The notes beneath the pieces were generated by a model. That model ran no database searches. It saw only the letters and a program-made list of their open reading frames with translations, and was not told where the DNA came from. Source: a virus (taxonomy: Duplodnaviria > Caudoviricetes). Taken from it: a stretch of 53,990 nt of DNA. Position numbers and translations under genes: made by a program. This document shows, one piece after another, positions 18,110-46,379 of the stretch (its first letter is position 1; every line of letters starts with the position of its first letter). Where the stretch lies: positions 1 to 53,990 of the IMG/VR virus record IMGVR_UViG_3300025276_000041; one strand, written 5' to 3'.

Positions 18110-18846
18110 GTGATTATACTATAACATATAGCGAATCTGTAAAGGGATTTCCTTCTTTTTACTCTTATATACCTGAGTATATAATGGGAATGAACAATTA
18201 CCTATATACTTTTAAAGCGGGTAATTTATATAGACATAACACAAATGAAGGTAGAAATAAATTTTACAATGTAAGCTACCCTTCTACAGTGACAAGTGTT
18301 TTTAATGTTAGCCCCACCGAATCTAAAAAATTTAAGACTTTATCCTTAGAGGCAAACAGTCCTTGGGGAGCCGCCTTCAAGACAAACCTAGAGACTGGCG
18401 TTATAAACTCAGCGTGGTATGACTTAAAAGAGGGGAGCTACTATGCCTCTATAAGGGCGAATGAGTCTCCCGTTAATTTTCACATGAGGTCTGTTGATGG
18501 CATAGGCAATGTAACTACAGTTAGTAATGTGGGGGTTACATACACGCTAGTATTTGCTTTTGCGATAAACCCCATTGTTAGCATTGGCGATAAGATATAC
18601 AAGGACTTAAATCCAGAATTGGAGGTTGGTTCCCTAACGGCTGTATCGGCAGATAGAAAGACTCTTACGGTAACTTTAACGGGAGCTGTCCCCGCTAATG
18701 GCAACTATATTTTTGCCGTTAAAAACCCACAAGCGGAATCCCAAGGAGTTATGGGATATTATTGTGAGTTTACTTTAACGAACACAAGCACTACCCATGT
18801 AGAGCTATTTACTGTAGAGTCTAGTATATTTAAATCATATCCATGA
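18106..18846 (+). CDS. Tail protein (resembles the C-terminal part of stabilisation proteins)
   Basis: ATGA overlap with the previous gene. Contains TYSESVKGFPSFYSYIPE...KKFKTLSLE. Confidence 0.6.
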   Translation: MSDYTITYSESVKGFPSFYSYIPEYIMGMNNYLYTFKAGNLYRHNTNEGRNKFYNVSYPSTVTSVFNVSPTESKKFKTLSLEANSPWGAAFKTNLETGVINSAWYDLKEGSYYASIRANESPVNFHMRSVDGIGNVTTVSNVGVTYTLVFAFAINPIVSIGDKIYKDLNPELEVGSLTAVSADRKTLTVTLTGAVPANGNYIFAVKNPQAESQGVMGYYCEFTLTNTSTTHVELFTVESSIFKSYP

Positions 18847-18853
18847 TTTTCGT

Positions 18854-18861
18854 TACCTTTG
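18854..18861 (+). promoter_or_regulatory. -7 promoter box TACCTTTG
   Basis: TAnnTTTG upstream of the ejection-protein operon. Confidence 0.6.
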
Positions 18862-18883
18862 TATTAACCCACATTATAGTATT

Positions 18884-19630
18884 ATGATACCAATACCACC
18901 TCAAGTTTTAATAGCAGCGGCAAAAGTGGTTTTACCTAAGCTGATTGGAGCGGGTCTTAGCTACTCTCAAGCGGCTAAGCAAAATAAACTAATGAAAGAC
19001 TCTGAGATAGCGGCACAAAAAGCTATTAGTGAGGCAAAAGATTTTGCAGGCACACTAGCTTATGAAAAAGTTCAAGTTCCATTAGAGGCCTACGAGTTGT
19101 CTCAAAGAGAGCTAACTGCTCAACAACAACAAGGCGTTGAGGCTTTGCGCGAGTCTGGGGCAAGAAGCATATTAGGAGGCGTTGGTCGCCTTCAAGCGGG
19201 GGTGACTAAGGCACAACAACAAATACAGGGTCAGATGGCTAACGCGTTATTTGAAAGAGACAAGCTTGTTGCTAAAGACGAGGCTCAATCTTTTGATGAC
19301 CTTTCTGATATTGCTAAACTTGAAGCTACGGGCGCACAAACTGCCGCGGCGCAAGCTCAAGCACAGAGGGGCGCTGCTTTAATGAGTGGAACAACAGCTT
19401 TAGCTGGAGGTCTTCTAGCTGGATTTTCTGACCCCACAATAAATCCTTTGTATGGTGCAGGATTAGATGCGCCAATGGGAACAACTTTAGGTAATGCCTC
19501 TGCAGGGGAAATGGCGGGGCTTGATGGTATCGCGCAAGTGACAGGGCTTTCTTCTGATGAATTAACAAAAGGTTTGGGGCTTGACAACAGTAATTTTCAA
19601 GTGAGTAAGAAACCTTGGTGGATCCAATAA
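18884..19630 (+). CDS. Internal virion / ejection protein 1
   Basis: A/Q/G-rich coiled-coil with hydrophobic Gly-Ala ends. First of three ORFs of increasing size, as in the T7 gp14-16 arrangement. Confidence 0.65.
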   Translation: MIPIPPQVLIAAAKVVLPKLIGAGLSYSQAAKQNKLMKDSEIAAQKAISEAKDFAGTLAYEKVQVPLEAYELSQRELTAQQQQGVEALRESGARSILGGVGRLQAGVTKAQQQIQGQMANALFERDKLVAKDEAQSFDDLSDIAKLEATGAQTAAAQAQAQRGAALMSGTTALAGGLLAGFSDPTINPLYGAGLDAPMGTTLGNASAGEMAGLDGIAQVTGLSSDELTKGLGLDNSNFQVSKKPWWIQ

Positions 19631-19642
19631 AAATATATTACA

Positions 19643-21460
19643 ATGGCAAAATCGTTTTATGGATATGTAAAAAGAGATGACAAGGCGTTTGTTGATTGGG
19701 GAGCTATTGGCACTCAGCTATCTGATGATTTAGCCCTAGAAAGCAAAAGAAGAGCAGACAAAAGACAAGAGATTGAACTTCAAACTATTGAAGATGTAAA
19801 AAATATTAATAAGCTAGGGGCTGATCAAAGCCAGCTTAATAGTGAATTTTATATGGACGCCGCAGATCAGATACGTGAATTTTTATTGATGTCACAAGGC
19901 GAGATGCAGAAGGGTGGATGGAGCGGGTTACGACCCTCAGAGTTTTTAAAACAAAGACAAGTTATAAATGATGGTGTTGACCAACTTGCTACAGCGGCAG
20001 AGTCTCAAGCCGCACAACAAGCACAGCTATTAAAGCGTGTCCAGGCGAACGAGGCTGGTCTTACGGAGAGGTATAATCATGAAGATCTTGATCAGTTTAT
20101 TAGTACTGAAAACAAAAGCGTTTATATTAATCCTATAAATGGAAGAATGTCAATTGCCACGAGAGACCCTATTACCAAAAAGATTTCAACCGACCCAATG
20201 AAGTTGTTAGATATAAATCGACTATCTACACGAATGACCTATAGAGCTAATACTCCAGATATTGACTCAATGGTTTCAAAAGCAAATAAAGTTTTGTCTC
20301 CCACAACTATAGCCTTGACCCAAGGTGGTATAAAATCTATTAAGACCGCGATGAACAACCCAAAATATTTGGATGCGGAAACTAGCATGATTAAGGGGAT
20401 GATGGCTTCGGATGAAGTTATCGCCAATATTTTAGGTTTAGATCCAGAGTATAATATGACTCAAGATGCAGCAGAAGCCAATAAGTCTGGTAATAAAAAA
20501 ATACTAACAAAAAAAGATGAGAATGGTGTTTTTGTTCCTATTCTGTCTGAATCTCAAAAAACTGAAGCAGAAGAGATTCTTCGCGCTAGAATACGTGCTA
20601 GTCTAGAGAAGGTTCAAACAGGCAGAGAAGATAGTTCTGCTGACAGACAATACAGCCGCGGGGTGGCTAAGTCTAAGCAAAAAGGTGTAGGCTATATTAG
20701 TGAGTTAAGTGATATTTTTTCTGGGAATGCTGAGAAAGCTGAAAGTGGTTTGGCTTCTATAATTGGAAGAATACAAGAAAAAGAAGGCTATAAAGGGGTT
20801 ACGGGTGCTCTATCAGATACTGGAATCACTTTAACATTTAAAGACGGCTCTACAGACTTTATTAAAAAACCCGCAATCTTTAAAGATTTTGTTACTGGAG
20901 GTGCAACTAGGTTAATGCCAGACGGGGTGGATGATGTTAATGTAGCTTATAAAAACTGGATTGATGCAGGAAATATCGTTGGAGTAAGAACAGATATGAC
21001 AACTGATCGTTTAGGAATAATACCACCAACTAAAGTTCTTAGTGAACTAGTTATTAAAGAAGGAGAGAAGGAATTAACGGTTAAAAATTATCTTAAAGAA
21101 AATAATTATAATTCTAAAAAAGATGCGGTTGAAAAAGTTATTTTAGAATTACTACCACCTGAACTTAAAGCTAATCTTAAGGTTTCTGATAATTATAGTC
21201 CAGGACTTGTGAGAAGAGCTAGAAGATCTTTGAATATTTCTTTAGGCAATATTATTGATAATATTAATATTCCTTTTGACAATACTGATGAGTCTAGAAA
21301 TGAAATATTAAATGTTATAGATTTAATTCAAAAATCAGCTGGGGAAGGAAAAACTTTAACTATTGAAGACATTAAGTCTATTTTGGGAGAAGAAAGTAAA
21401 TCAATATTTGATTCATTAAATAAAATAGATAGTAAATCTGATGATAACAACTTTGGGTAA
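19643..21460 (+). CDS. Internal virion / ejection protein 2
   Basis: 605-aa helical protein in ejection-module position. Confidence 0.6.
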   Translation: MAKSFYGYVKRDDKAFVDWGAIGTQLSDDLALESKRRADKRQEIELQTIEDVKNINKLGADQSQLNSEFYMDAADQIREFLLMSQGEMQKGGWSGLRPSEFLKQRQVINDGVDQLATAAESQAAQQAQLLKRVQANEAGLTERYNHEDLDQFISTENKSVYINPINGRMSIATRDPITKKISTDPMKLLDINRLSTRMTYRANTPDIDSMVSKANKVLSPTTIALTQGGIKSIKTAMNNPKYLDAETSMIKGMMASDEVIANILGLDPEYNMTQDAAEANKSGNKKILTKKDENGVFVPILSESQKTEAEEILRARIRASLEKVQTGREDSSADRQYSRGVAKSKQKGVGYISELSDIFSGNAEKAESGLASIIGRIQEKEGYKGVTGALSDTGITLTFKDGSTDFIKKPAIFKDFVTGGATRLMPDGVDDVNVAYKNWIDAGNIVGVRTDMTTDRLGIIPPTKVLSELVIKEGEKELTVKNYLKENNYNSKKDAVEKVILELLPPELKANLKVSDNYSPGLVRRARRSLNISLGNIIDNINIPFDNTDESRNEILNVIDLIQKSAGEGKTLTIEDIKSILGEESKSIFDSLNKIDSKSDDNNFG

Positions 21461-24400
21461 TGAGTGAAGATATTTTAAATAGAATTTGGAAAAACTTGAC
21501 CAAAAATAAACTCACTAAGAGTGATTTTGAAACTTGGAAATCTAATATTGAATCTGATCAAAAAGTTCAAGAAAATGTTCATCAGTATTTAGTTGAAAAA
21601 AAATTAACTGATTCAGATTTTACTACTTGGCAATCCAATAGTGGTTTAAAAAAAAAAGAAGAAATCGTTACGGAATCTATTTCAGAGGATGGTTCTTCGG
21701 GCTTTGCAGAAGGTGAAGTTGAAGAATTTGTTGGCGATGTAAAAATCCCACAAGATGGTCTAGAGTCTACCCCTTTTGGTGTTAAAAGAAAGGTTGATGG
21801 TGAGCTTACAAGCATATCTCCTACAACAGAGGCTATGATGCCAGAGGTCACCTTTCCACAAAAAACAGAAGAGACTTTAGAAGAAAAAGCAGCCTCTAAA
21901 TTAGAGCCATCTCAAGACGCTTTATTTGTTTCTACATTAGAAACACAAGAACCCACCGTAAAAGAAATAGAAAAAGATATATCGCCATTAATTGATGATC
22001 AAACAATAGAAAGGCTATCGGCTGATTTAGACCCTGAGGTAGAAAAGGAGACAAGAAAATTCTATGAGGACAGAGGCATAGACTACGATGAGGTTAGAGC
22101 TTTAGAGTTGAGATACGATGAGCTTTTAAATAAAAAGCTAGCGGCTGAAGAGGTTAATGAAATTATAAACAACTATTCTCAGACCATGACAGGCACAGGT
22201 TTAGAGATCACAGAGGATGAAAGGTTGTTAGAAATAAAAGAAAAGTATCCTCAGTTTTTTAATAGCCAAGGATTACCTTCTTTTACAGACTTTAGTGAAC
22301 TAGAACAAAAGGAGTTTGATAAAATAAGTAAGCTTATTGTAGACTCTAAAGGCAATGAAGTTAGAACTAGATACACAGATCAAGGGGTACCAGTTAAAAG
22401 TTTTGCAGAAGATCAAAGTAATCAGAGACTAAGAGAAGACCTTGATGAGTATTTGGTTTCTAAGAGAAAAGAAAGAAGCTCTCAAGCGGCTGTTTACAAC
22501 GAAGAAGCAAAAGCTGTTATTAAAAAAGTAGACGAAGAGTCTGTAAGGGTTTTTGGAAAAGACTTGTCTAGCGTTTTGTCTGAGTCTGAAAAAGGACAAA
22601 GGGTTATTTCAGAAGAAGATTCTGCAATACTAAACAGACTAATTAAAGAATTTAATTCATCTCTTTCTACATCTGATTTGGCAGCTAAAGAATACGCAAA
22701 GTCTATGCTTTACTATAACCGTCAACACAACAAGAGTTTAAATGGCGAGTATGAAGATGGATACAAGGCTACCTTAAACGCCATCAAGGGTGGCGCTAAA
22801 ATGGGTAACTCTATAGTAGGTTTGTTTTCAGTTATGCTAGATACCCCAGGTTCCTCTAAAGAAGAAGTCATAAAGAAAATGGCTGAAAATTTTGAAGAGC
22901 AATCTAAACTTCCAACTTCTCGTCTTATGACTAGGTTTCAACAATCTAAGTCTGCAACTGAATTAAAAACCGCGGTATTAAATAACCCTATTGGCTATAT
23001 GGCCTCTTTTATGGGGGAAAGTCTTGCTATGATGTTGCCCGCAGGTGTTCGTTTTGGAGTTGCGAATACTTTAGCGCAAGTTGGAATTGGAGCCGCTAGA
23101 GCTGGAGCACCTGGGGCTACTGCAGGATTAGCAACTGGTATCATAAGTTCTTTTTCTGCAGCCAACGGTATTGTAGAGTATGGTAATGCGTTTTTTGAAG
23201 CGGCAGGGGAAAAGGGTTATGACTTATCTAATCCCGATGATATGCTCAACGCGATGCAAGACGAAGAGGTTTGGGATAAAGCTAATAGAGTTGGAATACC
23301 AAGAGCTATTGCAATATCTGGAGTTGACTTAGCTGGTGGTACTTTAATGAGCAAGGCGCTAAAAGGATTAAAGTATAGTACCATTTCTCGTGGTCGTTTA
23401 GTAGGAACCGCTTTAGGTTCTCAAGTTATTATAGGCCCCACTCAAGAAGGTGGGGGAGAGCTTTTAGCTCAAGCAGTTGCCGGAGAAGGCTTTAGTCTTC
23501 AAGAAACTGTTGCTGAAATGATAGGAGGGGCAGGAACAAACATTCCCAACATAGGTTTAGATGTTTATGGCATAGCCACAGGCAAGGTCAATAATAAACT
23601 AGCAGAAGACTTAAAGAGCACACGTTTTATGGCTTCAGAACTTGAGAATATGTCTGGAGAAAAAATACAGTCTTGGGTTTACAACATGCGAAGGTTAGGT
23701 AAAATGACTCCAGAACAAGAGTCTGAGATATTAGATAATTTAAGCAGTGTAAAAGAAATTAAGGAACTTGTAGACAACAAGGCAGAGTTTAAAGACATGA
23801 AGTCAAAAGAACGAATAGAATATATTTCAGTTCTATCTGTTTTAAAACAAGAGCTTAAGTCCTTAAAAGAAGAAAGCGAAGTTTTGGGAGTGTCGATTGA
23901 TGCCGAAAAGAAGAAAAGTCTAGAGGATAAAATTAAAAAGTTAGTCAATAAAGAAATTACACCTAAAAGCGTTTTACAGGAAAAAATAAAAGAATCATTA
24001 ACATTTAAAGAAGAGTCTGATGCCATTCAAGAGTCAAGCACAGAGAGCGTGGATGTACAAGAACAAGCCGGAGCTAGCGAAGGAGTTCGAGAAGGAGACA
24101 TCACAGAGCGAGTTGCTCCCACAGAGAGCACAACCCAAGATGGGCAAGAGCAAGATGTCGAAACGCAAGTCGAGGAAATCGCGCAAGAGGAGATTATTGA
24201 GCCGAGCCTAAGTCCTCAAGAAATTGAAGCTCAAGAGTTGGAAGACCTTAAGAAAGAGATTGGTCAACCTACCGAAGAAGTTCAAGAGGAAGAAAACAAC
24301 CTTGAAGGTAATTTGTTTTTAAAAGGATCAGATCCTCAATTATCTATTACTCAGAGAAACAAAAGAACTGGATTAATAAAGAGAGGTAAGTCGGCTATTC

Positions 24401-27400
24401 GTTCTATAAAAAAAATCCTACCCAATACTAAAATTATACTACATAAAAATAATGAGTCTTATATTTTAGCGGCAGGCAGAAAAGGGAAAGGTGAATTTGT
24501 TCCAAAAACAAATACTATTCATATTAACTTGAGCAAAGCCACGGGTTCTACAATTGCTCATGAGGTTTTTCATGCGGTCTTTATAGATAAGGTAAAAGGC
24601 TCTAAGGATCTACAAAAAACTGCTGCCGATATGGTTAAGTCCATTGGGAAAAGTCTGCCGAAAGATAGTGATTTAGCTAAAAAAGTAAAGAATTTTAGCG
24701 ACAGATATGAATCTGGAATTCAAGATGAAGAATTTCTTGCAGAGTTAGTTGGTCTATTGTCATCTGAAGAGTTTGGCTTTAGCGAACTTCCTAAACCAGC
24801 AAAGAATACTATTATAGAGTTTCTTAAAAAGATTGCTAAAAAAATAGGCATTAAGCTTGAGGCAACATTTGGCAAGACTGATGAAAGTGTAATAGACTTA
24901 ATTAATATTCTGACACGCAAGGTGTCTACTGGTGAAGAGATTGTTGCAGAAGATGTTCAATCACTAGAGCAAGAAGAGAAAGATTCTAAAAGTGAAATAA
25001 CAAATAGGCAACAAAAAGAAGCTTTAGATATTATAGGAGTTGAAACACCTAAAAAAAATGCAACAAAAATCGTTGTAGCAGACATATTAAATGGCTTTGC
25101 AAAATCAGAGTTGACTCCAAATTCTTCTGAGCAAGATTTAATATCTAGATTTTTAGAAAACATATTTGAAGAGTCTTTGTATACATTAAATAAAGGATCA
25201 AGAGAGTCGGGTATGACTTGGTACATGGAAGACATTACTGAGTTTGAAAACAAAATGAAAGTTTTATTGCCTGAGCTCGAAGACCCCAATCAAATGAAGT
25301 TGTTCAAGCAAGTTCTTGCAATCACTTCTTCGGGAACCAACCCTAACCAAAACCTAAAGACAGCATACACTTTGTGGGTTCGATCTAACGGAGATGCCGT
25401 AAACTTTGCTAAAAACTGGGGGAAAGATAAGATTTCTTTTATTACTAAAAAAGGCGTGCCTTTAGGTACAGGCGTTGTGGTTCGGGAGACTAAAACTAAG
25501 TATGTACTACAGAAAGTGGATGCTTTAGGAAATCTAGAAACATTTAAAAATGGAACACCAAAGTTATTTGAAGCTAAAAAATCACAGTTAAAAAAAGGAT
25601 ACCCTAAGCCGGCTGGATTTACATCTAGAGGTAGTATTGTAGCGCAACAGCTAATCAAGATAGAAAAGGTTTATAAATCTGTAGGCAAAGACATTAATAA
25701 ACTTATTTCGTTCTTTGAAGAAACTCAACCTGTATCTGAACTTAGAAAATACAACAAGGGAATTCCTGACGCTGATGGAAACACAAGAATAATAGCTGTT
25801 GGTAAGCGTAATGGAGCGTTTATTTTTGGTGAAAAAATTGGTGCTTTCTATCAAAATATGATTGGTATCGGAGATACAATCACTATGGATTTATGGTGGA
25901 GTCGTACTTGGAATAGATATATGGGTACAATGTTATCTACTGTAAAAGGAGAGAGAAATATTCAAGAAACACCAAGGACAGATAGAGAGCGTGATATTAT
26001 GCGTAAAGCCGTAACTTTGGCTGCTGATAAATTAAATCTTAGCGTAAGTGAACTTCAAGCAGTTATATGGTATTTTGAACAAGAACTTTGGACTAAGGCC
26101 GGAAAGGTATCTCCAAGTTTTAGCTACGTTACAGCAGTAAATAAATTAAATAACGAAATAGAAACAGATGAAGAAACAAAAAGAAGATTTTCAAAAGCTG
26201 GAGCAGACCTCACAAAGGCTGAAGAGAGAAGGCAAGATGCCGTCTCTAGAGCAGATAATATTGTTAATGAAGCAAGTGGCGAAGGAGTTGTAGCTAATCG
26301 TCAAGAAATATCTCCAAGACAACAACTTGAAGAAATCGTAGGGGATACAGAAAATAGTTTATTTCAAACGATAGCACAAGCTAGATTTGCTGGCTTTAAA
26401 GACATAACAATTAAAGCACTTCTTAAGGAGCAAAAATATTCAGTAGCAGACATTAATGAGGCTATGAAGGTTGAAAAAATAGTTAGCCTTTCTTTTCCTT
26501 CAATACTTTCAAGAGCATTTTATAAATCTAAGTTTCATACGACAAAGTCGGCTAAAGACAGGATAAAACAAATTTTAGACTTAGAGATAGGTAGGTCTGT
26601 AGAATTACCAAGTTCTTTTGCCAATGTAAAAGGAGGCGTTATCTCTGGTAAAAGGCTACTCGTAGACATAATGACGGAAGTTACTGAGAAAGCTATTCTT
26701 AAAAGAAATAGCTATAGGAAAATCTTTGAGACAAAAGAAAAAAGATTGTCTAACGCTCAAGTTAAAAAGTTATCTGCTGAGAGCTCAAAAGAAAGGGCTG
26801 AAGTTAGAAAAATAGCTATAGAAACTCTAGAAAAAAATTCTGACTACAAGAACGAAAGCGAAGAGATGCAAGCCCAGATGAAGCTAGACCTAGATAGAAT
26901 CATAAGTGGTGAAGTTGGAACTTACGGGTCTAAAATGTTTATAGAAAACTTTAGAGTTTTGAGAACTATGCTCTCTGAAAGAGCTAAAGGAAGGGCTGGA
27001 ATTAAGGAAATGCAAATGATGCTGAGGTCTTTTATTAGACAAAACCTTCCCTCTATTGATTATAGCAAGCCTGAAGTTAGCAGGCTCCTAAAAGCCATTA
27101 CAGATGTCAAGATAGACCCAAAGTCTAGATCTACAAATATTGATGAGATAACGGCTAGGGTTGTTGGTTACGTTTCAGAGGCTCAGTCTTCTCAAGTGGA
27201 AAGTAAAATAAATAAATTACTTAGCACAACGACACAAAGGACAGAGTCTGGGAGAATTAAGGGTAAGGGATTTCTTCCTTCTTTTCAAGATAGTTTTGCT
27301 GAATTAGAGAGAATGATTGTCGATGACAACATGGCTGAGCAAAAAATTCAAGACACCATAGGTGCACAACGTCGAGAGTTTGAAGATATAATGAGCCGAA

Positions 27401-29955
27401 CTCAAGAAAGAACAGTTAATGAAATCCAGACTCCTGCCGAAGAGCTATCTCAAGAAGATTTAGATCGTTTAGAGATTTTACAAATCGCCATAGAGCTTAA
27501 CTCAGCTAAGATGATGGAAAACAAAGACCCTTTAAAAGTAAAGGCTCTTAGTAATGTTTTAGTATTGTTGCAAAAGTATATTTTGAGAGGGAAGTCTGAA
27601 AACAAGGGAGAACTAAATGCTTATAAACAAAGAGTTAATAACATGATTGCTGAAGCTTTTTATAATGTTTCTGGAGGACAAAACATTCCAGAGACAGAAG
27701 AAGAAAGAGCTAGATGGGTAAGAAGGTCAGCAAATAAAGCTCAAAGAAGAAATGATTCAAGAAATTTATTTCTCTCTGCATTCAAAACAGCATTTACAGG
27801 ACTAGAAGGGTATTTTACAAAGAGCAACGCGTTAGAGGGTCTTGTAAGTAAAGTCACAATGATTCCTGGAGAAATGATAGGGGGTCGCTTTCAAGATATG
27901 ATTACATATAGGGTGAAAGATTCAACTTCTGAGTTTACTAGAAGAAAATTGTTAGTCACTAAAATGATTGATGATAATGCTAAACGCATTTTTGGTAAAG
28001 ACTACATCTCTAAGATGGAGAAAAATAAAGCTGGAATAAACACAGGTCTTTATGTTAATTCTCAAGAGGCAAAAGATATTAAACTTAAAATATCAAAAGA
28101 AAAAAACGAAGCAAAGAAAAGAAAATTAATTAGTAAGCTAGGGGAATTAGAAATAGAAGCAAGTAAAAATCAAATATATTATTTATACAATCAATATAAA
28201 GACCCTGCTAATATACCAACTTTTAACGCCATGTATGGTGAAGATTATGCTAAAACAATGGAGGGTCTGATTAATTTCTTGGATGACGAAACTAAGGCTT
28301 GGGCAGATTGGCAAGTTAATGTTTTCTTCCCTTCTTTATATAATGACTATAATGATGTATATAAAAGAATATATCGTGCTAATATGCCATGGAATCAGTT
28401 TTATGCAGGCAGACTTTATAGGGAGGTTAATAAAAAGGATGCCGGTGTTGATTTATTAAAAAGCCAAACTCAATACATGGGCAGTGTAGGTGGTCAATCA
28501 ACAAAAGAAAGAGTAAAAAATAAGGAGCGTATATTAAAAGTAGATGGAGATAAAGCTTTAAGTGTTTATGTGAATGATATGGAATACTTTAGGGCTTATG
28601 CTGAAACTTTAAAGGAAATTAACACCGTATTCAATAATAAGTATGTTAGACTCTCTATAGAGGAAAACACAGGCAAAGAAACTTACAAGCTTATTACGGA
28701 CATGATAAATAAACTTAGCACTAGAGGTATAAAGAGTGGGGAAATACAATTATTAAATAAATTAAACTCAGCGTTTGTTAGCGCTAAATTAGGCATAAAT
28801 CCTACCGTTTTTGTAAAACAATTAACGTCTGCGTTTGCTTTTGCGGATTATGTTGGAATTAGAAATTGGATTAAATACTGGGTTAAAGCCGCTCCAGATG
28901 CTAAACAACTATGGAACGAGTGGTACGATAACTCTCCAGTTTTGCAGGCTAGATATGAGTTTTCTTCTATAGCAAATGTTTTAGAAGGCTATGATTACGA
29001 TACCATAAATGACAAAATACAGTCCCCTGTATTTGAAGCTTTATCTATTACTAAAGATGAAATTTCTAAAGCTCAAAACGCCTTGATGTATTTAGTGAAA
29101 ATGGGTGACATGGGAGGAATAATGGGAGGCATATCTAACTATTTGTATTACAAAGAAAAGTTTGCAGAAAAAAACCCAAAGGCTACCGAGCAACAAGCGA
29201 TTGATTATGCTTCTCGAAAGGCTACCAATGAGGCTACAAGCACACAACAAAATAGTGCTATTGAAGATAAAGACTGGTGGCAGACGGCTGGTCAATTACC
29301 TAGGCTCATGTCTTTATTCCTATCAGCGCCAAAGGCTTTAAATAGAAAAACTATTATGTCTGTGAGGCAGTTGTATAGAAAGTCTGCAACTTTAGGCAAG
29401 GCCATGAGAGAGGGTAAATCATTCAAAGAGGCTAACGAAATTGCTAGAAATACTGGTCGAGGTAGCGCATATGAAAACTGGAGGAGAATGGCTATATATC
29501 ATAGTGCTATTCCAACTGTTTTTCAATATGTTGCACTAGGTATGCCAGGTCTTCTAACAGACTTTGATGATGATGACTTAGAAGAGTTAGGTATCGCAGC
29601 AATTTTAGGAAACATAAACGCTGTGTTTTTAGTGGGAGATTTATTTGTTGCCGCTAAAGACCTATATCTTAACAAATTTTGGGCAGGGCGAATGAAAAAC
29701 CTTTCTGCTTTTATGGCTATAGAAGAGATAGCTACAAGGTCAATAATTCCTCTTGTAAACAGTTCTTCTCCTGAAAAAACCAAAAAATATACTATGAGAT
29801 TAATTCTTCAACTACTAGAACTCGGTGGAATTCCAGCTAAAAATGTAAAAAAACTAGCAGAAAACTATTACAAGCTATTAACTGGAGATGTCGAAGATAC
29901 TGGAGAGGCTGTAGCTCGTTTACTAAACTACTCTGACTACGTTATAGAGAAATAA
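21460..29955 (+). CDS. Giant internal virion (polyvalent-type) protein with a zincin HEVFH domain and a putative HhH-glycosylase-like domain
   Basis: 2831 aa with a Gly/Ala hydrophobic segment, TIAHEVFH...EEFLAE, and WY...LAITSSG...N...GEKIGAFYQN...ITMDLW...LQAVIW. Confidence 0.75.
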   Translation: MSEDILNRIWKNLTKNKLTKSDFETWKSNIESDQKVQENVHQYLVEKKLTDSDFTTWQSNSGLKKKEEIVTESISEDGSSGFAEGEVEEFVGDVKIPQDGLESTPFGVKRKVDGELTSISPTTEAMMPEVTFPQKTEETLEEKAASKLEPSQDALFVSTLETQEPTVKEIEKDISPLIDDQTIERLSADLDPEVEKETRKFYEDRGIDYDEVRALELRYDELLNKKLAAEEVNEIINNYSQTMTGTGLEITEDERLLEIKEKYPQFFNSQGLPSFTDFSELEQKEFDKISKLIVDSKGNEVRTRYTDQGVPVKSFAEDQSNQRLREDLDEYLVSKRKERSSQAAVYNEEAKAVIKKVDEESVRVFGKDLSSVLSESEKGQRVISEEDSAILNRLIKEFNSSLSTSDLAAKEYAKSMLYYNRQHNKSLNGEYEDGYKATLNAIKGGAKMGNSIVGLFSVMLDTPGSSKEEVIKKMAENFEEQSKLPTSRLMTRFQQSKSATELKTAVLNNPIGYMASFMGESLAMMLPAGVRFGVANTLAQVGIGAARAGAPGATAGLATGIISSFSAANGIVEYGNAFFEAAGEKGYDLSNPDDMLNAMQDEEVWDKANRVGIPRAIAISGVDLAGGTLMSKALKGLKYSTISRGRLVGTALGSQVIIGPTQEGGGELLAQAVAGEGFSLQETVAEMIGGAGTNIPNIGLDVYGIATGKVNNKLAEDLKSTRFMASELENMSGEKIQSWVYNMRRLGKMTPEQESEILDNLSSVKEIKELVDNKAEFKDMKSKERIEYISVLSVLKQELKSLKEESEVLGVSIDAEKKKSLEDKIKKLVNKEITPKSVLQEKIKESLTFKEESDAIQESSTESVDVQEQAGASEGVREGDITERVAPTESTTQDGQEQDVETQVEEIAQEEIIEPSLSPQEIEAQELEDLKKEIGQPTEEVQEEENNLEGNLFLKGSDPQLSITQRNKRTGLIKRGKSAIRSIKKILPNTKIILHKNNESYILAAGRKGKGEFVPKTNTIHINLSKATGSTIAHEVFHAVFIDKVKGSKDLQKTAADMVKSIGKSLPKDSDLAKKVKNFSDRYESGIQDEEFLAELVGLLSSEEFGFSELPKPAKNTIIEFLKKIAKKIGIKLEATFGKTDESVIDLINILTRKVSTGEEIVAEDVQSLEQEEKDSKSEITNRQQKEALDIIGVETPKKNATKIVVADILNGFAKSELTPNSSEQDLISRFLENIFEESLYTLNKGSRESGMTWYMEDITEFENKMKVLLPELEDPNQMKLFKQVLAITSSGTNPNQNLKTAYTLWVRSNGDAVNFAKNWGKDKISFITKKGVPLGTGVVVRETKTKYVLQKVDALGNLETFKNGTPKLFEAKKSQLKKGYPKPAGFTSRGSIVAQQLIKIEKVYKSVGKDINKLISFFEETQPVSELRKYNKGIPDADGNTRIIAVGKRNGAFIFGEKIGAFYQNMIGIGDTITMDLWWSRTWNRYMGTMLSTVKGERNIQETPRTDRERDIMRKAVTLAADKLNLSVSELQAVIWYFEQELWTKAGKVSPSFSYVTAVNKLNNEIETDEETKRRFSKAGADLTKAEERRQDAVSRADNIVNEASGEGVVANRQEISPRQQLEEIVGDTENSLFQTIAQARFAGFKDITIKALLKEQKYSVADINEAMKVEKIVSLSFPSILSRAFYKSKFHTTKSAKDRIKQILDLEIGRSVELPSSFANVKGGVISGKRLLVDIMTEVTEKAILKRNSYRKIFETKEKRLSNAQVKKLSAESSKERAEVRKIAIETLEKNSDYKNESEEMQAQMKLDLDRIISGEVGTYGSKMFIENFRVLRTMLSERAKGRAGIKEMQMMLRSFIRQNLPSIDYSKPEVSRLLKAITDVKIDPKSRSTNIDEITARVVGYVSEAQSSQVESKINKLLSTTTQRTESGRIKGKGFLPSFQDSFAELERMIVDDNMAEQKIQDTIGAQRREFEDIMSRTQERTVNEIQTPAEELSQEDLDRLEILQIAIELNSAKMMENKDPLKVKALSNVLVLLQKYILRGKSENKGELNAYKQRVNNMIAEAFYNVSGGQNIPETEEERARWVRRSANKAQRRNDSRNLFLSAFKTAFTGLEGYFTKSNALEGLVSKVTMIPGEMIGGRFQDMITYRVKDSTSEFTRRKLLVTKMIDDNAKRIFGKDYISKMEKNKAGINTGLYVNSQEAKDIKLKISKEKNEAKKRKLISKLGELEIEASKNQIYYLYNQYKDPANIPTFNAMYGEDYAKTMEGLINFLDDETKAWADWQVNVFFPSLYNDYNDVYKRIYRANMPWNQFYAGRLYREVNKKDAGVDLLKSQTQYMGSVGGQSTKERVKNKERILKVDGDKALSVYVNDMEYFRAYAETLKEINTVFNNKYVRLSIEENTGKETYKLITDMINKLSTRGIKSGEIQLLNKLNSAFVSAKLGINPTVFVKQLTSAFAFADYVGIRNWIKYWVKAAPDAKQLWNEWYDNSPVLQARYEFSSIANVLEGYDYDTINDKIQSPVFEALSITKDEISKAQNALMYLVKMGDMGGIMGGISNYLYYKEKFAEKNPKATEQQAIDYASRKATNEATSTQQNSAIEDKDWWQTAGQLPRLMSLFLSAPKALNRKTIMSVRQLYRKSATLGKAMREGKSFKEANEIARNTGRGSAYENWRRMAIYHSAIPTVFQYVALGMPGLLTDFDDDDLEELGIAAILGNINAVFLVGDLFVAAKDLYLNKFWAGRMKNLSAFMAIEEIATRSIIPLVNSSSPEKTKKYTMRLILQLLELGGIPAKNVKKLAENYYKLLTGDVEDTGEAVARLLNYSDYVIEK
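24020..24211 (+). CDS. Overprinted small basic protein (MPFKSQAQRAWMYKNKPELAKEFEKET...) nested in the +1 frame of the giant gene
   Basis: The N-terminus matches a pattern I recall as a stand-alone small phage protein (MPFKS..QR.WM....PE.AK..E.ET). Recall not verified by search. Confidence 0.6.
   Translation: MPFKSQAQRAWMYKNKPELAKEFEKETSQSELLPQRAQPKMGKSKMSKRKSRKSRKRRLLSRA
26168..26293 (+). CDS. Candidate second nested gene (41 aa, MKKQKEDFQKLEQTSQRLKREGKMPSLEQIILLMKQVAKEL) in the +1 frame
   Basis: Translated by hand. Preceded by an A-rich leader (AAATAAATTAAATAACGAAATAGAAACAG-ATG) like those of bona fide genes here, and encodes amphipathic helices. Confidence 0.45.
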   Translation: MKKQKEDFQKLEQTSQRLKREGKMPSLEQIILLMKQVAKEL

Positions 29956-40825: not shown

Positions 40826-41094
40826 AATCCTAAAGCTTTTTTAAGCGTTAATGTTGCCATCTCATCTTGGTACATCTCTTTCGCTACATCGTCAATAGAT
40901 ATCAGCGTGTATGGTTCAACACCAACAAGTTGTTCTACGACTCCATTATTAATCTCAATTACCCTGTCAAGCAGTTCGTTAAAGTAGTCCTGAGCCTCAT
41001 CGGTATAAGAGCCGTTTAAACGTCCTTTACCTTGGAAGTGCTGATCGACATACTCGCCAACCGCATCTATGATTTCAATTTCTCTATCATTCAT
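40822..41094 (-). CDS. Hypothetical early protein
   Basis: 90-aa ORF with ATGA overlaps. Confidence 0.65.
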   Translation of the reverse strand: MNDREIEIIDAVGEYVDQHFQGKGRLNGSYTDEAQDYFNELLDRVIEINNGVVEQLVGVEPYTLISIDDVAKEMYQDEMATLTLKKALGL

Positions 41095-41414
41095 GATTCT
41101 AGCATTTTAATAAATTCTACTACTGCTTGGTAGGTTCCTTGTAGCTTGGTTTGTCCTTGCTTACATATTGTTATACCACCCCCATTAATGTTGCACTCAA
41201 ACACTTCAATCATTACATTAAAGAAGTTATCTGAATTATCATCATTGTCTGTTGTGATGCATTCAATCTTCTCTACCACAGGCATCAACCAATTCCAATC
41301 GGTTTGAAATTTACTCAGAGATTTAATCGTGTGTGTCCACTCTCCGTTATCAAAACTTCTTTCATCTGAGTATTTCATACCCATAAATTCTGCAATCATT
41401 TTATTATTATTCAT
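41091..41414 (-). CDS. Early phage protein (WNWLMPVVEKIE family)
   Basis: NKMIAEFMG...DWNWLMPVVEKIE...YQAVVEFIK pattern, frequent in Bacteroidota phages. Confidence 0.7.
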   Translation of the reverse strand: MNNNKMIAEFMGMKYSDERSFDNGEWTHTIKSLSKFQTDWNWLMPVVEKIECITTDNDDNSDNFFNVMIEVFECNINGGGITICKQGQTKLQGTYQAVVEFIKMLES

Positions 41415-41430
41415 CTTAATTTATTTTTAA

Positions 41431-41456
41431 TGGTTATGACCATCCCCCGAAGGGGA
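41431..41456 (-). repeat. Early-leader repeat copy 5: hairpin + UGGUCAUAACCA
   Basis: UCCCC-UUCG-GGGGA-UGGUCAUAACCA-UUAAAA. AUAACC starts 23 nt before ATG 41414. Confidence 0.9.
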
Positions 41457-41472
41457 GGTGTTTAAACGAGCT

Positions 41473-41823
41473 CTATTCTGCATTTTTTGGGTAAAGCATC
41501 TGAGCTATATATGCATAGACTCTCTTAGCTTGGGCATCAGACATCTCTCCCGCCTCTTGGTGAATCGTCAGGATATTCATAACAAGAGCTAAGGTTGTAT
41601 CAACGCACCTTTGTGGAGGTAGTGAGGCTACTTCGTTAAATGCACCTAAGCTTACCCTCTCATCAAATCCCTCTTCATAAACGGACTCTGTAACTACCAT
41701 TCGATGTTTTTTTGCTTCTTTCTCTAAAGCCTTAAGACAAGAGATGTATGTCTCTTCACTATTAAATGTTGCTACCTTTTCTGCGTAAGAATGTTTTGGT
41801 GTTTCAAAATATACTGTTATCAT
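41473..41823 (-). CDS. Hypothetical early protein
   Basis: 116-aa ORF flanked by repeat copies. Confidence 0.7.
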   Translation of the reverse strand: MITVYFETPKHSYAEKVATFNSEETYISCLKALEKEAKKHRMVVTESVYEEGFDERVSLGAFNEVASLPPQRCVDTTLALVMNILTIHQEAGEMSDAQAKRVYAYIAQMLYPKNAE

Positions 41824-41839
41824 TTTAAATAAATTTAAT

Positions 41840-41865
41840 TGGTTATGACCATCCCCCGAAGGGGA
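41840..41865 (-). repeat. Early-leader repeat copy 4
   Basis: UCCCC-UUCG-GGGGA-UGGUCAUAACCA, 23 nt to ATG 41823. Confidence 0.9.
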
Positions 41866-41911
41866 TGCGCTTAAGATTTTAAAACTTACTTATGGCTAGC
41901 CCCCTTGCTTG

Positions 41912-42352
41912 TTAGTTTATCTTCCTCCAATATCCTTGAGCATATTTATCTTGACATAGCCAAGTATCTCGGTTAACACCTTTTACAACCGCAGTCCAAT
42001 GCGAGCCATATCCAACCCTGACATCAAAAATATAATTCTCATCTTCAGATAAGATACTCTTGTGCTTATACATAACTTGCTTTTTTCGGTCTTTAATAAG
42101 ACTGATTCTTTCCCAGCCTTTTCTTTCCATATAAATAGTCAAAGTAAATATTGAATTCCCGTCTGGTCTACCCAATTCGTTAACAGCTATGTCTGATAAA
42201 TCTCTAAGGGTTTGCATATAGTCTTGTTCTAAAGCTAAAGCGCAAGCCCTAACCGCACAATCCCCAACATAATCTTTTTTTCTTCCTGTGAGAAAATAGT
42301 TTTCCCTACCCCCGTGAGAAAGTTCATATTTGATATAATCGATTCTTTTCAT
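41912..42352 (-). CDS. Early protein with a papain-like Cys/His/Asp pattern
   Basis: GDCAVRA...HWTAV...DTW. Confidence 0.55.
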   Translation of the reverse strand: MKRIDYIKYELSHGGRENYFLTGRKKDYVGDCAVRACALALEQDYMQTLRDLSDIAVNELGRPDGNSIFTLTIYMERKGWERISLIKDRKKQVMYKHKSILSEDENYIFDVRVGYGSHWTAVVKGVNRDTWLCQDKYAQGYWRKIN

Positions 42353-42368
42353 AATAAATAGTTTTTAA

Positions 42369-42396
42369 TGGTTATGACCAAGCCCCCAGAGGGGCT
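42369..42396 (-). repeat. Early-leader repeat copy 3
   Basis: AGCCCC-UCUG-GGGGCU-UGGUCAUAACCA, 23 nt to ATG 42352. Confidence 0.9.
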
Positions 42397-42402
42397 AGAG
42401 TT

Positions 42403-42595
42403 TTAACAGTTTTCTTCACAGTATTCTTTGAATAGTCTAGATACTTTTCTATTCGTGTTTAGAGTATCTATAACTTCGCCTTCTAAAAGAACATCTGATC
42501 CAGATATAAACTATACCTTCATAGTTGATTGAGTAGACTTCACATCCTCTAAGCATTATTAAAGTGTCTAAAGAGTTTTCATTTAATGTATTCAT
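42403..42595 (-). pseudogene. Small early gene, apparently frameshifted
   Basis: The ATG 42595 frame stops after 48 codons. A +1 frame (ISGSDVLLEGEVIDTLNTNRKVSRLFKEYCEENC) runs to TAA at 42403, next to the repeat. Confidence 0.4.
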
Positions 42596-42610
42596 GATAT
42601 ATAATTTTAA

Positions 42611-42638
42611 TGGTTATGACCATCCCCTATAAAGGGGA
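42611..42638 (-). repeat. Early-leader repeat copy 2
   Basis: UCCCCU-UUAU-AGGGGA-UGGUCAUAACCA, 22 nt to ATG 42595. Confidence 0.9.
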
Positions 42639-42648
42639 ATGGAGGCGT

Positions 42649-43263
42649 TTAAACGACTTGAAGTGATCCATCTGCACACGCTAAACAATCGATGTCTTCA
42701 TCTACAAAGACATTGCCTAGCATTGAGTCGATGTTCTTTTGACTCGTCCTAAAGCTAAATCCGCAACACTCACACTCTACCTTTATGTTTCGTGTTCCTT
42801 GCTTTTTGGCGTTAGTCGGAGTAGTCATCATGTCGTGCGGGAACTCGCCGATCTTCTTGACAATCTTATCACATTTAGACTTTAACTCTGGGCCCGCCTC
42901 GGTAGCTCTCATCTTGCCCGTAAGGCCGATCTTGAGCGCCATGTCTCTGAAGACTTTGCCGTGGCCGTTCTTGTTATTGTCAATTGCGTGGATCAGCTCA
43001 TGAGCTAGGACATCGAGTGTTCTGGAGCTCTTCTTGCGATCAAAGAAAAACGGGTTCATGAATATCTCATGATTGCCCGCAGTGCTACATGATGTGTGCC
43101 AATTTTCGCCGATGCTAAGATTTTTCTGTTTCCTAGTTCCACTGCTCATTATTGATACAGACACATTTACTTTAGGAACTTTTAGCCCGACAGGCTCAAA
43201 GACCTCCCTTGATAGCTCTTGAACTCCTAGTTGGAGCCAAGCTTCTCTATTAACAGTTTTCAT
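42649..43263 (-). CDS. SprT-like zinc metalloprotease with C-terminal Zn ribbon
   Basis: LAHELIH...HGKVF, CECC and CLAC. First gene of the early arm. Confidence 0.8.
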   Translation of the reverse strand: MKTVNREAWLQLGVQELSREVFEPVGLKVPKVNVSVSIMSSGTRKQKNLSIGENWHTSCSTAGNHEIFMNPFFFDRKKSSRTLDVLAHELIHAIDNNKNGHGKVFRDMALKIGLTGKMRATEAGPELKSKCDKIVKKIGEFPHDMMTTPTNAKKQGTRNIKVECECCGFSFRTSQKNIDSMLGNVFVDEDIDCLACADGSLQVV

Positions 43264-43279
43264 AATAAATAATTTTAAT

Positions 43280-43429
43280 GGTTATGACCAACTAGGTAAA
43301 CGATACCTAGTCAGTTGGTTTCGGGCATTGCTGTGGAAGAGTCTTGATACTTACCTCCTAGCCTACGTTTGATCCAGATAGCCCCACCACATCCCTGTGG
43401 CATGCCCCTCTCGGGGTCTTCAGATAACC
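43280..43429 (-). ncRNA. Hammerhead-ribozyme-like RNA with an enlarged, non-canonical stem II region (contains repeat copy 1)
   Basis: GGUUAU-CUGAAGA (43429-43417) ... GAAA-CCAA (43322-43315) ... UUGG-UC/AUAACC (43291-43280). Stems I and III and all conserved core bases are present. Stem II needs an insertion. Confidence 0.65.
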
Positions 43430-43635
43430 TCTCTGGCGTAGCGAGCTTTCGCTCGGTTTTAAGGACATGGATAATGCAACTGATTTTGTGCAGTTTTAAC
43501 TCTGCCATCCGTCTCTCGGGCTCTAACCGACTCTCGGGGTGGAGGATTTAACGATTATCATGCATCAAAGTGCTGACAATCAGGGTGTTACGTTGCGATT
43601 TCCAATATTTCAATGTACAGTGTGCCTCAACAGCT
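43430..43635 (-). ncRNA. Structured 5' part of the early leader RNA
   Basis: GAUUGUCA/UGAUAAUC stem, GAGC-GAAA-GCUC, repeated CCCGAGAG hairpin loops and a boxA-like GUACAUUGAAAUAUUG. Confidence 0.55.
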
Positions 43636-43638
43636 CTG

Positions 43639-43670
43639 TAACAATACGACCTTTTTATTACCTGACCAAA
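43639..43670 (-). promoter_or_regulatory. Candidate early promoter (TTTG-N20-TATTGTTA)
   Basis: Bacteroidota -33 TTTG with correct spacing to a degenerate -7 box (2 mismatches to TAnnTTTG). Confidence 0.45.
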
Positions 43671-44119
43671 TCTTCATGACTCACACTAGGTTTGCGGACT
43701 TTGGTATTCTTACTTTTTGTTTAACCCTTTGTTCATCAGGCGTTTAAACGACACAACATTATATGCTGTCGGACAATAGTAAAATCATTTATAGATGTGA
43801 AAGATGGGCGAGGGGTTAAGGGAAGGCTCTTTCCCTCTGAACTTTCATTCACCCTTGAGGGGAAGGTGTGGGGGTGTGGAGGTGGTGGTGTTTACATTGT
43901 CAAATTCCAAGGTCATGATGCGTGGTAAGTAGCTACAGATACCAAGATGCACCACCTATAGCTAGGCCAAAACAAAAAGCCAAAATAATCGGAAGGAAAT
44001 TTTTGAAACAGAACCCCCCCCTCAAAAAAAAAGTCGTTTTCCAAATCGACCGATGGCGCCCGTAGCCGCAGAGAACCCAAACACTAAATACATCTAATAT
44101 GATTTTGTATCTTTACCGA

Positions 44120-44759: not shown

Positions 44760-46379
44760 ATGAGTGAATTAGGATATAGCCCAAAGGATTTAACCTTTGA
44801 TTCAAATGCGCGCAAGCGTCTTCAGAGTGGTATAAAAAAGATTAGTAAGGCGGTAAAGTCTACATTAGGCCCTAGGGGTAAGACTGTCTTGATAGAGAGT
44901 CAGAATCATACTAGGGGAATTACCGTTACTAAGGACGGTGTGACTGTAGCAAAGAGCATAGACTTATTAGATCCTGTAGAGAACCTGGCGATACGTATGG
45001 TCAAGGAGGCTGCGGACAATACTGCAACTAGTGCTGGTGATGGAACGACTACGGCTATAGTCTTGACCGAGGCGATTGCATCGTTGGGCATGGATGCCAT
45101 AGATGATAGTGTCAGCTCTACCGAGGTGATAAGAGAGATAGGGAAGCTCACTGACGATGTGGTGAAGCGATTGAAGAAGATGTCGAGGAAACTTGGCAAG
45201 CGAGGACTGCTTGATGTAGCTACGATAAGCTCTAATAATGACAAGGAGATAGGTCGGGTGATTGCTGATGTGTACGGGGCGATTGGTGACAATGGTCTTG
45301 TGACGGTAGAGAAGAGCATGACCGAGGAGACGTACCACGAGGTGACGGATGGGATAAAGATTGACAAGGGTTATACCAACAAGATGTTCGTCAACAACCA
45401 GAAGAAGGACGAGTGCATACTAGAGGACGCTCATATTCTTATGACAGACCACGAGATTACAAACGTTCTGGCGATAGAGAGCATACTAAAGCCCGTGATA
45501 CAGAGTGGACAGCCACTACTGATTATTGGGAGCTGTTCAAACCAGGTGGTGAACACCTTGGCGGCCAATGTTGTCAAGAGCGGTCTGAAGATATGTAACA
45601 TAATGCCTCCTCAGTTTGGATACAAGCAGCATGAGTTGATGGGTGATATAGCCGTCAGTGTGGCTGGGAAGTTTATGAGCGAGAGCCTTGGCGATGACCT
45701 TAGCACAATAACCATGGCTGACCTAGGTAAGGCAGAGAAGGTGATTGTAGGGAAAGATAACACGATAATCATACGTAACGAAACTAATCCAGAGAGCATA
45801 AAGGCCAGAGTAGAGGAGCTTTGGGTTGCTCATGACCATGCTAAGATTAAGCACGAGCGTGACTTCGTAAAAGAGAGAATCGCATCCTTAACGGGAGGGA
45901 TAGGAGTGATATATGTCGGTGCCAATAGTGATATCGAGCAGAAAGAGAAGTACGATAGGGTTGACGATGCCGTGTGTGCCGTCAGATCCGCACTCGAAGA
46001 GGGTGTGTTGCCAGGAGGAGGGCTTGCCCTGTACAACCTGAGCCATAAGTATATGCTCAACGACAAGATGTGGGACGCTAAACAGAGCAGTAAAGAGTCT
46101 CGTATCGCCAATAGAATAATGTCAGAGGCGCTTGTGTCTCCCATGAAGCAGATTATGGTCAACGCGGGTCTAGACCTAGACACTATTATGGACAGTGTTC
46201 AGGGTGAGAACGTAGGCTACGACGTGAAGAACGAATGCTATGGTGATATGTTTAAGATGGGGGTGGTTGACCCACTAAAAGTCACAAAGAACGCGCTAAA
46301 GAACGCATCGAGTGTCGCGACAACGATCCTCAGTACCAACGCCATTGTAACTTTGGCTAGGACATATACCGCTGAATAG
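44760..46379 (+). CDS. groEL: Phage-encoded chaperonin GroEL
   Basis: TLGPRG, TKDGVTVAK, AGDGTTTA, GVLPGGG and GVVDPLKV motifs. No GGM tail. Confidence 0.97.
   Translation: MSELGYSPKDLTFDSNARKRLQSGIKKISKAVKSTLGPRGKTVLIESQNHTRGITVTKDGVTVAKSIDLLDPVENLAIRMVKEAADNTATSAGDGTTTAIVLTEAIASLGMDAIDDSVSSTEVIREIGKLTDDVVKRLKKMSRKLGKRGLLDVATISSNNDKEIGRVIADVYGAIGDNGLVTVEKSMTEETYHEVTDGIKIDKGYTNKMFVNNQKKDECILEDAHILMTDHEITNVLAIESILKPVIQSGQPLLIIGSCSNQVVNTLAANVVKSGLKICNIMPPQFGYKQHELMGDIAVSVAGKFMSESLGDDLSTITMADLGKAEKVIVGKDNTIIIRNETNPESIKARVEELWVAHDHAKIKHERDFVKERIASLTGGIGVIYVGANSDIEQKEKYDRVDDAVCAVRSALEEGVLPGGGLALYNLSHKYMLNDKMWDAKQSSKESRIANRIMSEALVSPMKQIMVNAGLDLDTIMDSVQGENVGYDVKNECYGDMFKMGVVDPLKVTKNALKNASSVATTILSTNAIVTLARTYTAE

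Follow-up and report, generated by a model that had tools for sequence, protein, structure and literature searches.

Can a hammerhead ribozyme carry a folded domain between stem II and the second half of its core and still cleave? This question is raised by a minus-strand element upstream of a SprT-like gene, the first early gene of a marine phage, for which the original prediction suggested a possible switch between mutually exclusive folds. The window, by which we mean the whole stretch of 53,990 nt that was analysed, is a phage record that is 89% complete. Its plus strand encodes the terminase, the portal, crAss-type muzzle proteins and a protein of 2831 amino acids, while its minus strand holds the replication and early module. 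The large terminase is nearest to those of Flavobacterium, Cellulophaga and Tenacibaculum podophages (87 records). The element lies in a gap of 1.5 kb between the plus-strand GroEL gene (44760-46379) and a run of small genes on the minus strand.

Our preferred reading, to which we give an even chance, is that the element is a still-functional, elaborated type I hammerhead, for which catalysis is predicted. Among the points in favour is that the element has every core nucleotide and the three stems; among those against are that there is no Rfam match, that 82 nt separate stem II from G12 and that the hammerhead register of stem III is energetically unfavourable. A conserved, covarying domain of 82 nt at this joint would add to what is known of the architecture of the small ribozyme that has been studied most.

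Anatomy of the element

Read 5' to 3' on the minus strand, the element consists of a GNRA hairpin, the segment CUACGCCAGA, GGUUAU, CUGAAGA, the hairpin CCCC-GAGA-GGGG, 82 nt of further sequence, GAAA, stem III, C43286 and AUAACC, after which come 16 A/U-rich nucleotides and an AUG (Table 1). The ends of stem I are open, which is the type I arrangement, and the exact string GGTTATCTGANGA has a single occurrence in the window. In the hammerhead register of stem III the A15.1-U16.1 pair (U43287) is present and position H17 is C43286. The gap from CUGAAGA to GAAA measures 94 nt, or 82 nt of insert if CCCC-GAGA-GGGG is counted as stem II, in which case stem II is not contiguous with G12 and the 82 nt lie between 11.1 and G12.

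Every motif quoted in the original prediction can be found on the minus strand of 43323-43440. The Rfam hammerhead models gave no match at the gathering score in the whole window, nor at E<=10 in 42800-44000, and a search of 41300-42800 returned no relevant Rfam family. There was also no match of the region to GenBank phages by blastn. Folding of a 197-nt stretch gave z = -2.17, with 4 of 200 shuffles folding as well.

Table 1. Coordinates of the leader, the hammerhead-like element and the related sites downstream, in 5' to 3' order of the minus strand
Feature	Position	Strand	Remarks
Upstream part of conserved non-coding leader	43456-43715	-	about 95% identical across contigs with differing flanking genes
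5' flank GNRA hairpin CGAGC-GAAA-GCUCG	43455-43442	-	pairs invariant; loop GAAA or GAGA
5' flank CUACGCCAGA (CUACG-CCAGA)	43441-43432	-	complementary to 43378-43363; pairs invariant
Stem I, 5' strand GGUUAU	43424-43429	-	6/6 pairs with AUAACC; invariant in 6/6 sequences
Core C3-A9, CUGAAGA	43417-43423	-	sole exact match in window; invariant in 6/6 sequences
Stem II hairpin CCCC-GAGA-GGGG	43405-43416	-	C-G to U-A compensatory change in 4/6; probability 0.98-0.99
Insert, 82 nt between stem II and G12	43323-43404	-	hairpins A and B, GGGC/GCCC, UCUGG-AUCAAA-CGUAG strand
Hairpin A (GNRA loop; contains CCAC/GUGG)	43401-43386	-	closing pair G.U, A-U or G-C
GGGC/GCCC helix in insert	43384-43381 with 43326-43323	-	invariant
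Insert strand UCUGG-AUCAAA-CGUAG	43378-43363	-	complementary to CUACGCCAGA; invariant
Hairpin B GGAGG/CUUCC	43358-43354 / 43339-43335	-	one G.U to A-U change
G12-A13-A14-A15.1, GAAA	43319-43322	-	invariant
Stem III hairpin, two registers	43287-43319	-	U-A to C-G double change in 2/6
C17	43286	-	predicted cut 43286/43285 from hammerhead consensus
Stem I, 3' strand AUAACC	43280-43285	-	opens 22-nt leader of SprT-like gene (AUG 43263-43261)
SprT-like gene	42649-43263	-	heads small-gene run; PF10263, E 8e-9
Half-site 1: GC hairpin, then GGUC-AUAACCAUUAAAA	42605-42621	-	before 48-aa ORF
Half-site 2	42363-42379	-	before ORF 41912-42352
Half-site 3	41834-41850	-	before ORF 41473-41823
Half-site 4	41425-41441	-	before ORF 41091-41414

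Conservation and covariation of the insertion

A core-anchored pattern search returned two viral and 11 metagenome loci. The insert-bearing element was found in nine contigs besides the window (L012, L093-L097, L099, L100 and L103), and a further match, in L102, looks like chance. The window and the nine contigs together hold six distinct leader sequences. The model that we scored on them comprised stem I, the stem II hairpin, hairpin A, the GGGC/GCCC helix, hairpin B, stem III in its hammerhead register and a pseudoknot between the 5' flank and the insert. Under this model 300 of 300 cells pair, and four pairs change on both sides (7 cells). The covariation score was matched by none of 500 shuffles, and slid controls paired in 32-42% of cells, with no double changes. 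The informative pairs are in stem II (4/6), at the close of hairpin A, in stem III, where U-A is replaced by C-G in two of the six sequences, and in distal stem III. Three helices thus have compensatory changes in their favour, namely stem II, hairpin A of the insert and stem III, and the three GNRA loops vary within GNRA only.

Stem I, the GGGC/GCCC helix and both halves of the long stem formed by the 5' flank and the insert strand show zero variation in the six sequences, and covariation is therefore silent on them. Because there are only six sequences and these are closely related, the covariation rests on few events and the conservation of the core is uninformative. The covariation suggests that the model is correct, as support and not as proof. 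The originally predicted large, non-canonical insertion adjoining stem II is borne out, in that it is conserved and structured in six distinct sequences. Judging from these sequences, the element with its 82-nt domain is a new architectural variant of the hammerhead ribozyme class.

We propose that the ribozyme would close a conserved, structured, non-coding leader of about 350-400 nt heading the early operon. Its core (GGUUAU-CUGAAGA ... GAAA-stem III-GUC^AUAACC) would descend from canonical hammerheads that stand before the small early genes of related phages, with the 82-nt module added between the 3' strand of a normal stem II, of 4 bp and a GNRA loop, and G12. The module probably folds on its own into hairpin A, the GGGC/GCCC helix and hairpin B. 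Stem II, hairpin A, the GGGC/GCCC helix and the tandem G.A pairs of the core may then meet in a four-way junction with linkers of 3 nt and 1 nt. With stem II stacked on A9.G12 and hairpin A stacked on the GGGC/GCCC helix, only the backbone between 11.1 and G12 would cross over, and such stacking could preserve the core geometry. One strand of the module could also pair with the 5' flank just outside stem I, giving a pseudoknot that would tie the side of stem I to that of stem II. The predicted cleavage after C43286 would leave the first early mRNA with a 5'-OH and a short, unstructured, A/U-rich leader of 22 nt, and would release a structured leader RNA.

Alternative folds of stems I, II and III

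The original prediction held that the G-run of CCCC-GAGA-GGGG could pair instead as GGGCAU/AUGCCC, or that a long stem could block the stem I arm, so that the element would be switched off and perhaps controlled by a ligand or a protein. We regard such a stem II switch as very improbable. GGGCAU (43407-43402) and AUGCCC (43328-43323), the latter directly before GAAA (43322-43319), are indeed present; on paper the two helices are mutually exclusive, and GGGCAU/AUGCCC would provide the canonical G10.1-C11.1 closing pair and a stem II of 6 bp. With this helix as stem II, 9 nt would lie between A9 and 10.1, and four of the six sequences have an A.C mismatch in it, whereas in the competing hairpin a compensatory double change, from CCCC/GGGG to CUCC/GGAG, preserves the pairing. 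The comparison of homologous leaders that had been suggested as a check therefore supports the hairpin and goes against the alternative helix. Pair probabilities in the nested-fold ensemble are 0.98-0.99 for the stem II hairpin and 0.0 for GGGCAU/AUGCCC; they are about 0.6 for stem I and about 0.36 for the long stem.

The nested minimum free energy structure (-58.5 kcal/mol) contains a stem III of 12 continuous bp and has the long stem in place of stem I, which speaks for the switch. Imposing the hammerhead stems I, II and III gives a best fold of -50.8 kcal/mol, 7.7 kcal/mol above that minimum, and imposing GGGCAU/AUGCCC instead gives -46.5 kcal/mol. The long stem and stem I are rivals in nested-fold programs because the long stem crosses stem I. 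Since this crossing has the topology of a pseudoknot, the long stem could act as a clamp on stems I and II instead of sequestering stem I; the long stem and stem I are topologically compatible and could coexist, and both halves of the long stem are retained without change, which goes against the proposed sequestration. Nor do we find signs of ligand control: no aptamer or other Rfam family matches the insert at E<=10, and a ligand-controlled ribozyme would be expected to show an aptamer and two conserved, exclusive helices, a combination that the element lacks. Of the proposed new architecture with an off-state, the architecture stands, with no description found in the literature searched, and the stem II switch is left unsupported.

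Stem III can pair in two ways. The hammerhead register consists of ACCAACU/AGUUGGU, a GACU bulge and AGG/CCU, and the alternative is a continuous helix of 12 bp (43315-43304 with 43298-43287) that leaves ACCA unpaired. Taken alone, stem III folds at -8.5 kcal/mol in the hammerhead register versus -15.5 kcal/mol in the 12-bp register, a gap of about 7 kcal/mol; for stem III of the L093/L103 type the values are -12.3 versus -15.9 kcal/mol and the gap is 3.6. Pair probabilities are 0.03-0.12 for the hammerhead register versus 0.72-1.0 for the 12-bp register. The double change from U-A to C-G agrees with the hammerhead register and can also be accommodated by the 12-bp one. From the fold energies and pair probabilities we therefore place the true exclusive folds in stem III, not in stem II, where they had been predicted.

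Canonical hammerheads in related phages

The related set consisted of 79 viral loci anchored on GroEL. A strict scan (exact CUGANGA and GAAA, 6/6 pairs in stem I, U-H at the cut site and a stem III of at least 4 bp) found type I hammerheads in 19 of the 79, with lengths of 51-65 nt and one 101-nt form in three loci; long matches in L029 and L033 look like chance. These hammerheads stand on the strand opposite GroEL, about 20-25 nt before the start codons of small genes, and their stem I is mostly GGUUAA/UUAACC or a near variant. Stem I, CUGAAGA, GAAAC and GUC are common to them and to the window element. The likeness to the type I hammerhead (RF00163) of these relatives extends to CUGANGA, GAAA, the A15.1-U16.1 pair, the GUC cut site, an open stem I (GGUUAN/NUAACC), a stem II of 4 bp capped by a small loop and a location about 22 nt ahead of the start codon. 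The window element differs in the 82 nt between stem II and G12 and in a stem III with a 4-nt bulge and a competing register, and it scores below every Rfam threshold. Given its anatomy, its recurrence in nine contigs and the canonical hammerheads in equivalent slots, the element is, as far as sequence comparison can tell, beyond chance.

Many GroEL-encoding contigs of marine podophages (among L013-L091, e.g. L069, L048, L054, L018, L036 and L087) carry one to four canonical type I hammerheads before small early genes, and their stem I is near-identical within a genome. The gathering score of RF00163 was passed in two of ten related loci checked, so that most of these hammerheads are invisible to standard annotation. 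One element each in L017, L018 and L022 has a canonical core and an insert of about 55-60 nt with two hairpins in stem III, and the single hammerhead of L092, which is identical to L101, has an otherwise canonical core and a stem III insert of about 100 nt. Elaborated hammerheads therefore recur in this phage group. Two tandem canonical hammerheads about 40 nt apart, with no ORF between them, are found in L098 (442-581, minus orientation). The complete, distant relative MW202828.1 (L105, 13296-20000) has a perfect 16-nt palindromic hairpin, GTGTCGTTAACGACAC, before most of its small early genes, in the slots that hold hammerheads or half-sites elsewhere.

Cut-site halves before other early genes

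The final 17 nt of the element, GGUCAUAACCAUUAAAA, are found at four further places on the minus strand, each time after a GC-rich hairpin and 21-24 nt before a start codon. Matches to this 17-nt motif in the window number six, against 0.39 expected, the one on the plus strand being due to chance. Other early genes in the lineage keep only the hairpin and a half-site, GGUC-AUAACCA; neither a CUGANGA core nor a stem I partner was found at any of 32 distinct lineage sites, even when 1+1 mismatches were allowed. The window thus has one core and four half-sites, and in each of the eight related loci with the leader exactly one core is followed by 2-13 half-sites on its own strand. G001, for which cores and sites were counted over the full record of 37.9 kb, has one core and 14 GGUCAUAACCA sites, all forward and within 2.7-7.9 kb. 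Most cores in the other lineages checked are immediately followed by a cut site of their own. This amounts to a natural experiment, in which relatives with a complete ribozyme for each early gene can be compared with a lineage that has one core and up to 13 invariant cut-site halves. The pattern would reflect either a hand-over of processing from RNA to protein or a natural trans-acting hammerhead.

The former would make the element a relic. The working unit would then be the GC hairpin with GGUCAUAACCA, recognised by an RNase, a polymerase or a regulatory protein, and the leader copy would keep fossil core strands, with the insert belonging to a leader RNA that has another job. We consider this rather unlikely, even though the core is absent at 4/5 sites in the window and 13/14 in G001, the leader's own site favours the 12-bp register and so resembles the core-less sites, and other relatives fill the same slots with quite different repeated hairpins, such as that of MW202828.1. 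What argues against a relic is that stem II, which has no other known role, is preserved by a compensatory double change, and that a second, hammerhead-compatible register right after GAA would, by our own estimate, hardly persist by chance. Furthermore, no candidate nuclease or polymerase was identified in the window.

The alternative to a hand-over is that one core serves many substrates, the leader hammerhead cutting, besides its own site, the half-sites downstream that lack a core, whether at a distance or in trans. After the first cleavage stem III would slip to the 12-bp register, freeing GAAACCA and GGUUAU to bind GGUC^AUAACC. If this were true, a set of self-cleaving hammerheads would have been turned into one 'enzyme' RNA and an array of substrate sites, and the 82-nt domain and the slip of stem III would help the leader hammerhead to process the whole early transcript. 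The numbers of cores and half-sites per locus are in keeping with this idea, as are the adjacent cut sites of most cores in other lineages and the co-occurrence, in one lineage, of an unusual core and the loss of local cores. The half-site hairpins differ and covary between sites, while G16.3 and the A after AUAACC are invariant in 31/31 distinct sites; the set of half-sites was defined by the motif itself, which bears on the conservation of arm-bound nucleotides, and the search motif imposed neither of these two positions. In 19 of 29 sites U16.1 is unpaired when the site is folded locally. Against the idea, pairing by the arms is weak, at -4.2 and -0.9 to -2.5 kcal/mol; the core's own site, being tethered, competes through its AUAACC for the stem I arm; and we know of no natural hammerhead that acts on multiple sites. 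The complementarity of the half-sites to the core arms is automatic, because the core's own site is already complementary, and the single motif shared by all sites precludes a test of covariation between arm and site. We think it improbable that the leader hammerhead acts in this way, and we retain the elaborated, self-cleaving hammerhead as the best explanation.

Many half-sites in 41380-42700, L094 and L103 have UAAAC or AAAC 0-4 nt before them, often overlapping the stop codon of the upstream gene, and one half-site of G001 keeps GAAACC. By sequence these look like remnants of the G12-C15.2 strand of an ancestral hammerhead. We also considered the half-sites as promoters and rejected this: by eye we saw no -7/-33 motif of the Bacteroidota type in them, and no polymerase gene was found. 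For a crAss-like phage, the phi14:2 preprint describes early promoters without a common motif.

Relation to known systems

Long early transcripts that are divided at repeated signals have a precedent in T7, where RNase III hairpins allow the transcript to be cut into single-gene messages. The half-sites resemble these hairpins as repeated signals between early genes; in T7 a protein enzyme cuts and there is no ribozyme-derived motif. Discontinuous hammerheads, with a long intervening sequence between the strands, occur in mammalian 3' UTRs of the CLEC2 type, where the break is in a stem loop and not between stem II and G12. Viroid and newt hammerheads cleave with a very short stem III of 2-3 bp. 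None of the CLEC2, viroid and newt hammerheads is known to serve an array of separate sites. To our knowledge, hardly any addition between stem II and G12 is tolerated by natural hammerheads.

Clustered hammerheads flanking genes have been described in polycistronic RNAs of phages and prophages (Perreault et al. 2011, PMC3088659). The early operon of the window is like these clusters, as they are presented there, in that a single operon of small phage genes is interspersed with several hammerhead-related elements; it differs in that only the first element keeps a core, the others being cut-site halves. The same paper presents pseudoknot pairing as the usual means of holding stems I and II together, and such pairing is known to stabilise the active fold. 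A place among these pseudoknotted hammerheads would call for at least 4 bp, with support from covariation or mutation; the complementarity between flank and insert in the window is of 5+5 bp and wholly invariant. The natural core insertions treated in section 8 of that paper (A6a and U13a) and in a separate passage (the 2a/2b pair) are single nucleotides or a pair, with no folded domain among them. In eukaryotic RNA viruses, type I hammerheads located in 5' UTRs were recently linked to the initiation of translation (PMC13725137). Outside subscription journals and supplementary files, we found no description in the literature of hammerheads in phages of Flavobacteriia or of the insert architecture.

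Transcripts and gene content

Metatranscriptome contigs from three runs of one study cover parts of the region (43337-43626, 43464-43626 and 42985-43141); they are short and of low depth, none spans 43286, and such contigs cannot reveal ends, so that they are silent on cleavage and expression. Position 43626 is the shared stop of two of these low-depth contigs, from two samples of the one study. Near it lies a weak stretch of the form TTTG-N20-TATTGTTA, which is too thin for a transcription start to be called.

On the plus strand, the muzzle domains PF25731 and PF25729 are followed by the 2831-aa protein (14789-29955), which has only a sub-threshold match to DUF7178. The protein is reminiscent of the cargo or virion-polymerase genes of crAss-like phages, with no catalytic motif recognised in it; a search for DFDxD returned a single C-terminal DFDDD, which is uninformative.

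The upstream leader

From around position 43715 as far as the AUG the leader is about 95% identical, while contigs differ from one another in what lies further upstream and in the first downstream gene. The leader gave no match at E<=1 in other related loci by blastn, and it is therefore specific to the lineage of the window. Its upstream part has no Rfam match. An ORF at 43311-43508 was considered as coding and rejected, because indels of 1 nt and 20 nt in relatives disrupt it. One hairpin of the upstream leader covaries from G-C to U-A. Repeated motifs of the CCCGAGAG type are found in this upstream part (43456-43715), where L097 and L100 have a 20-nt indel.
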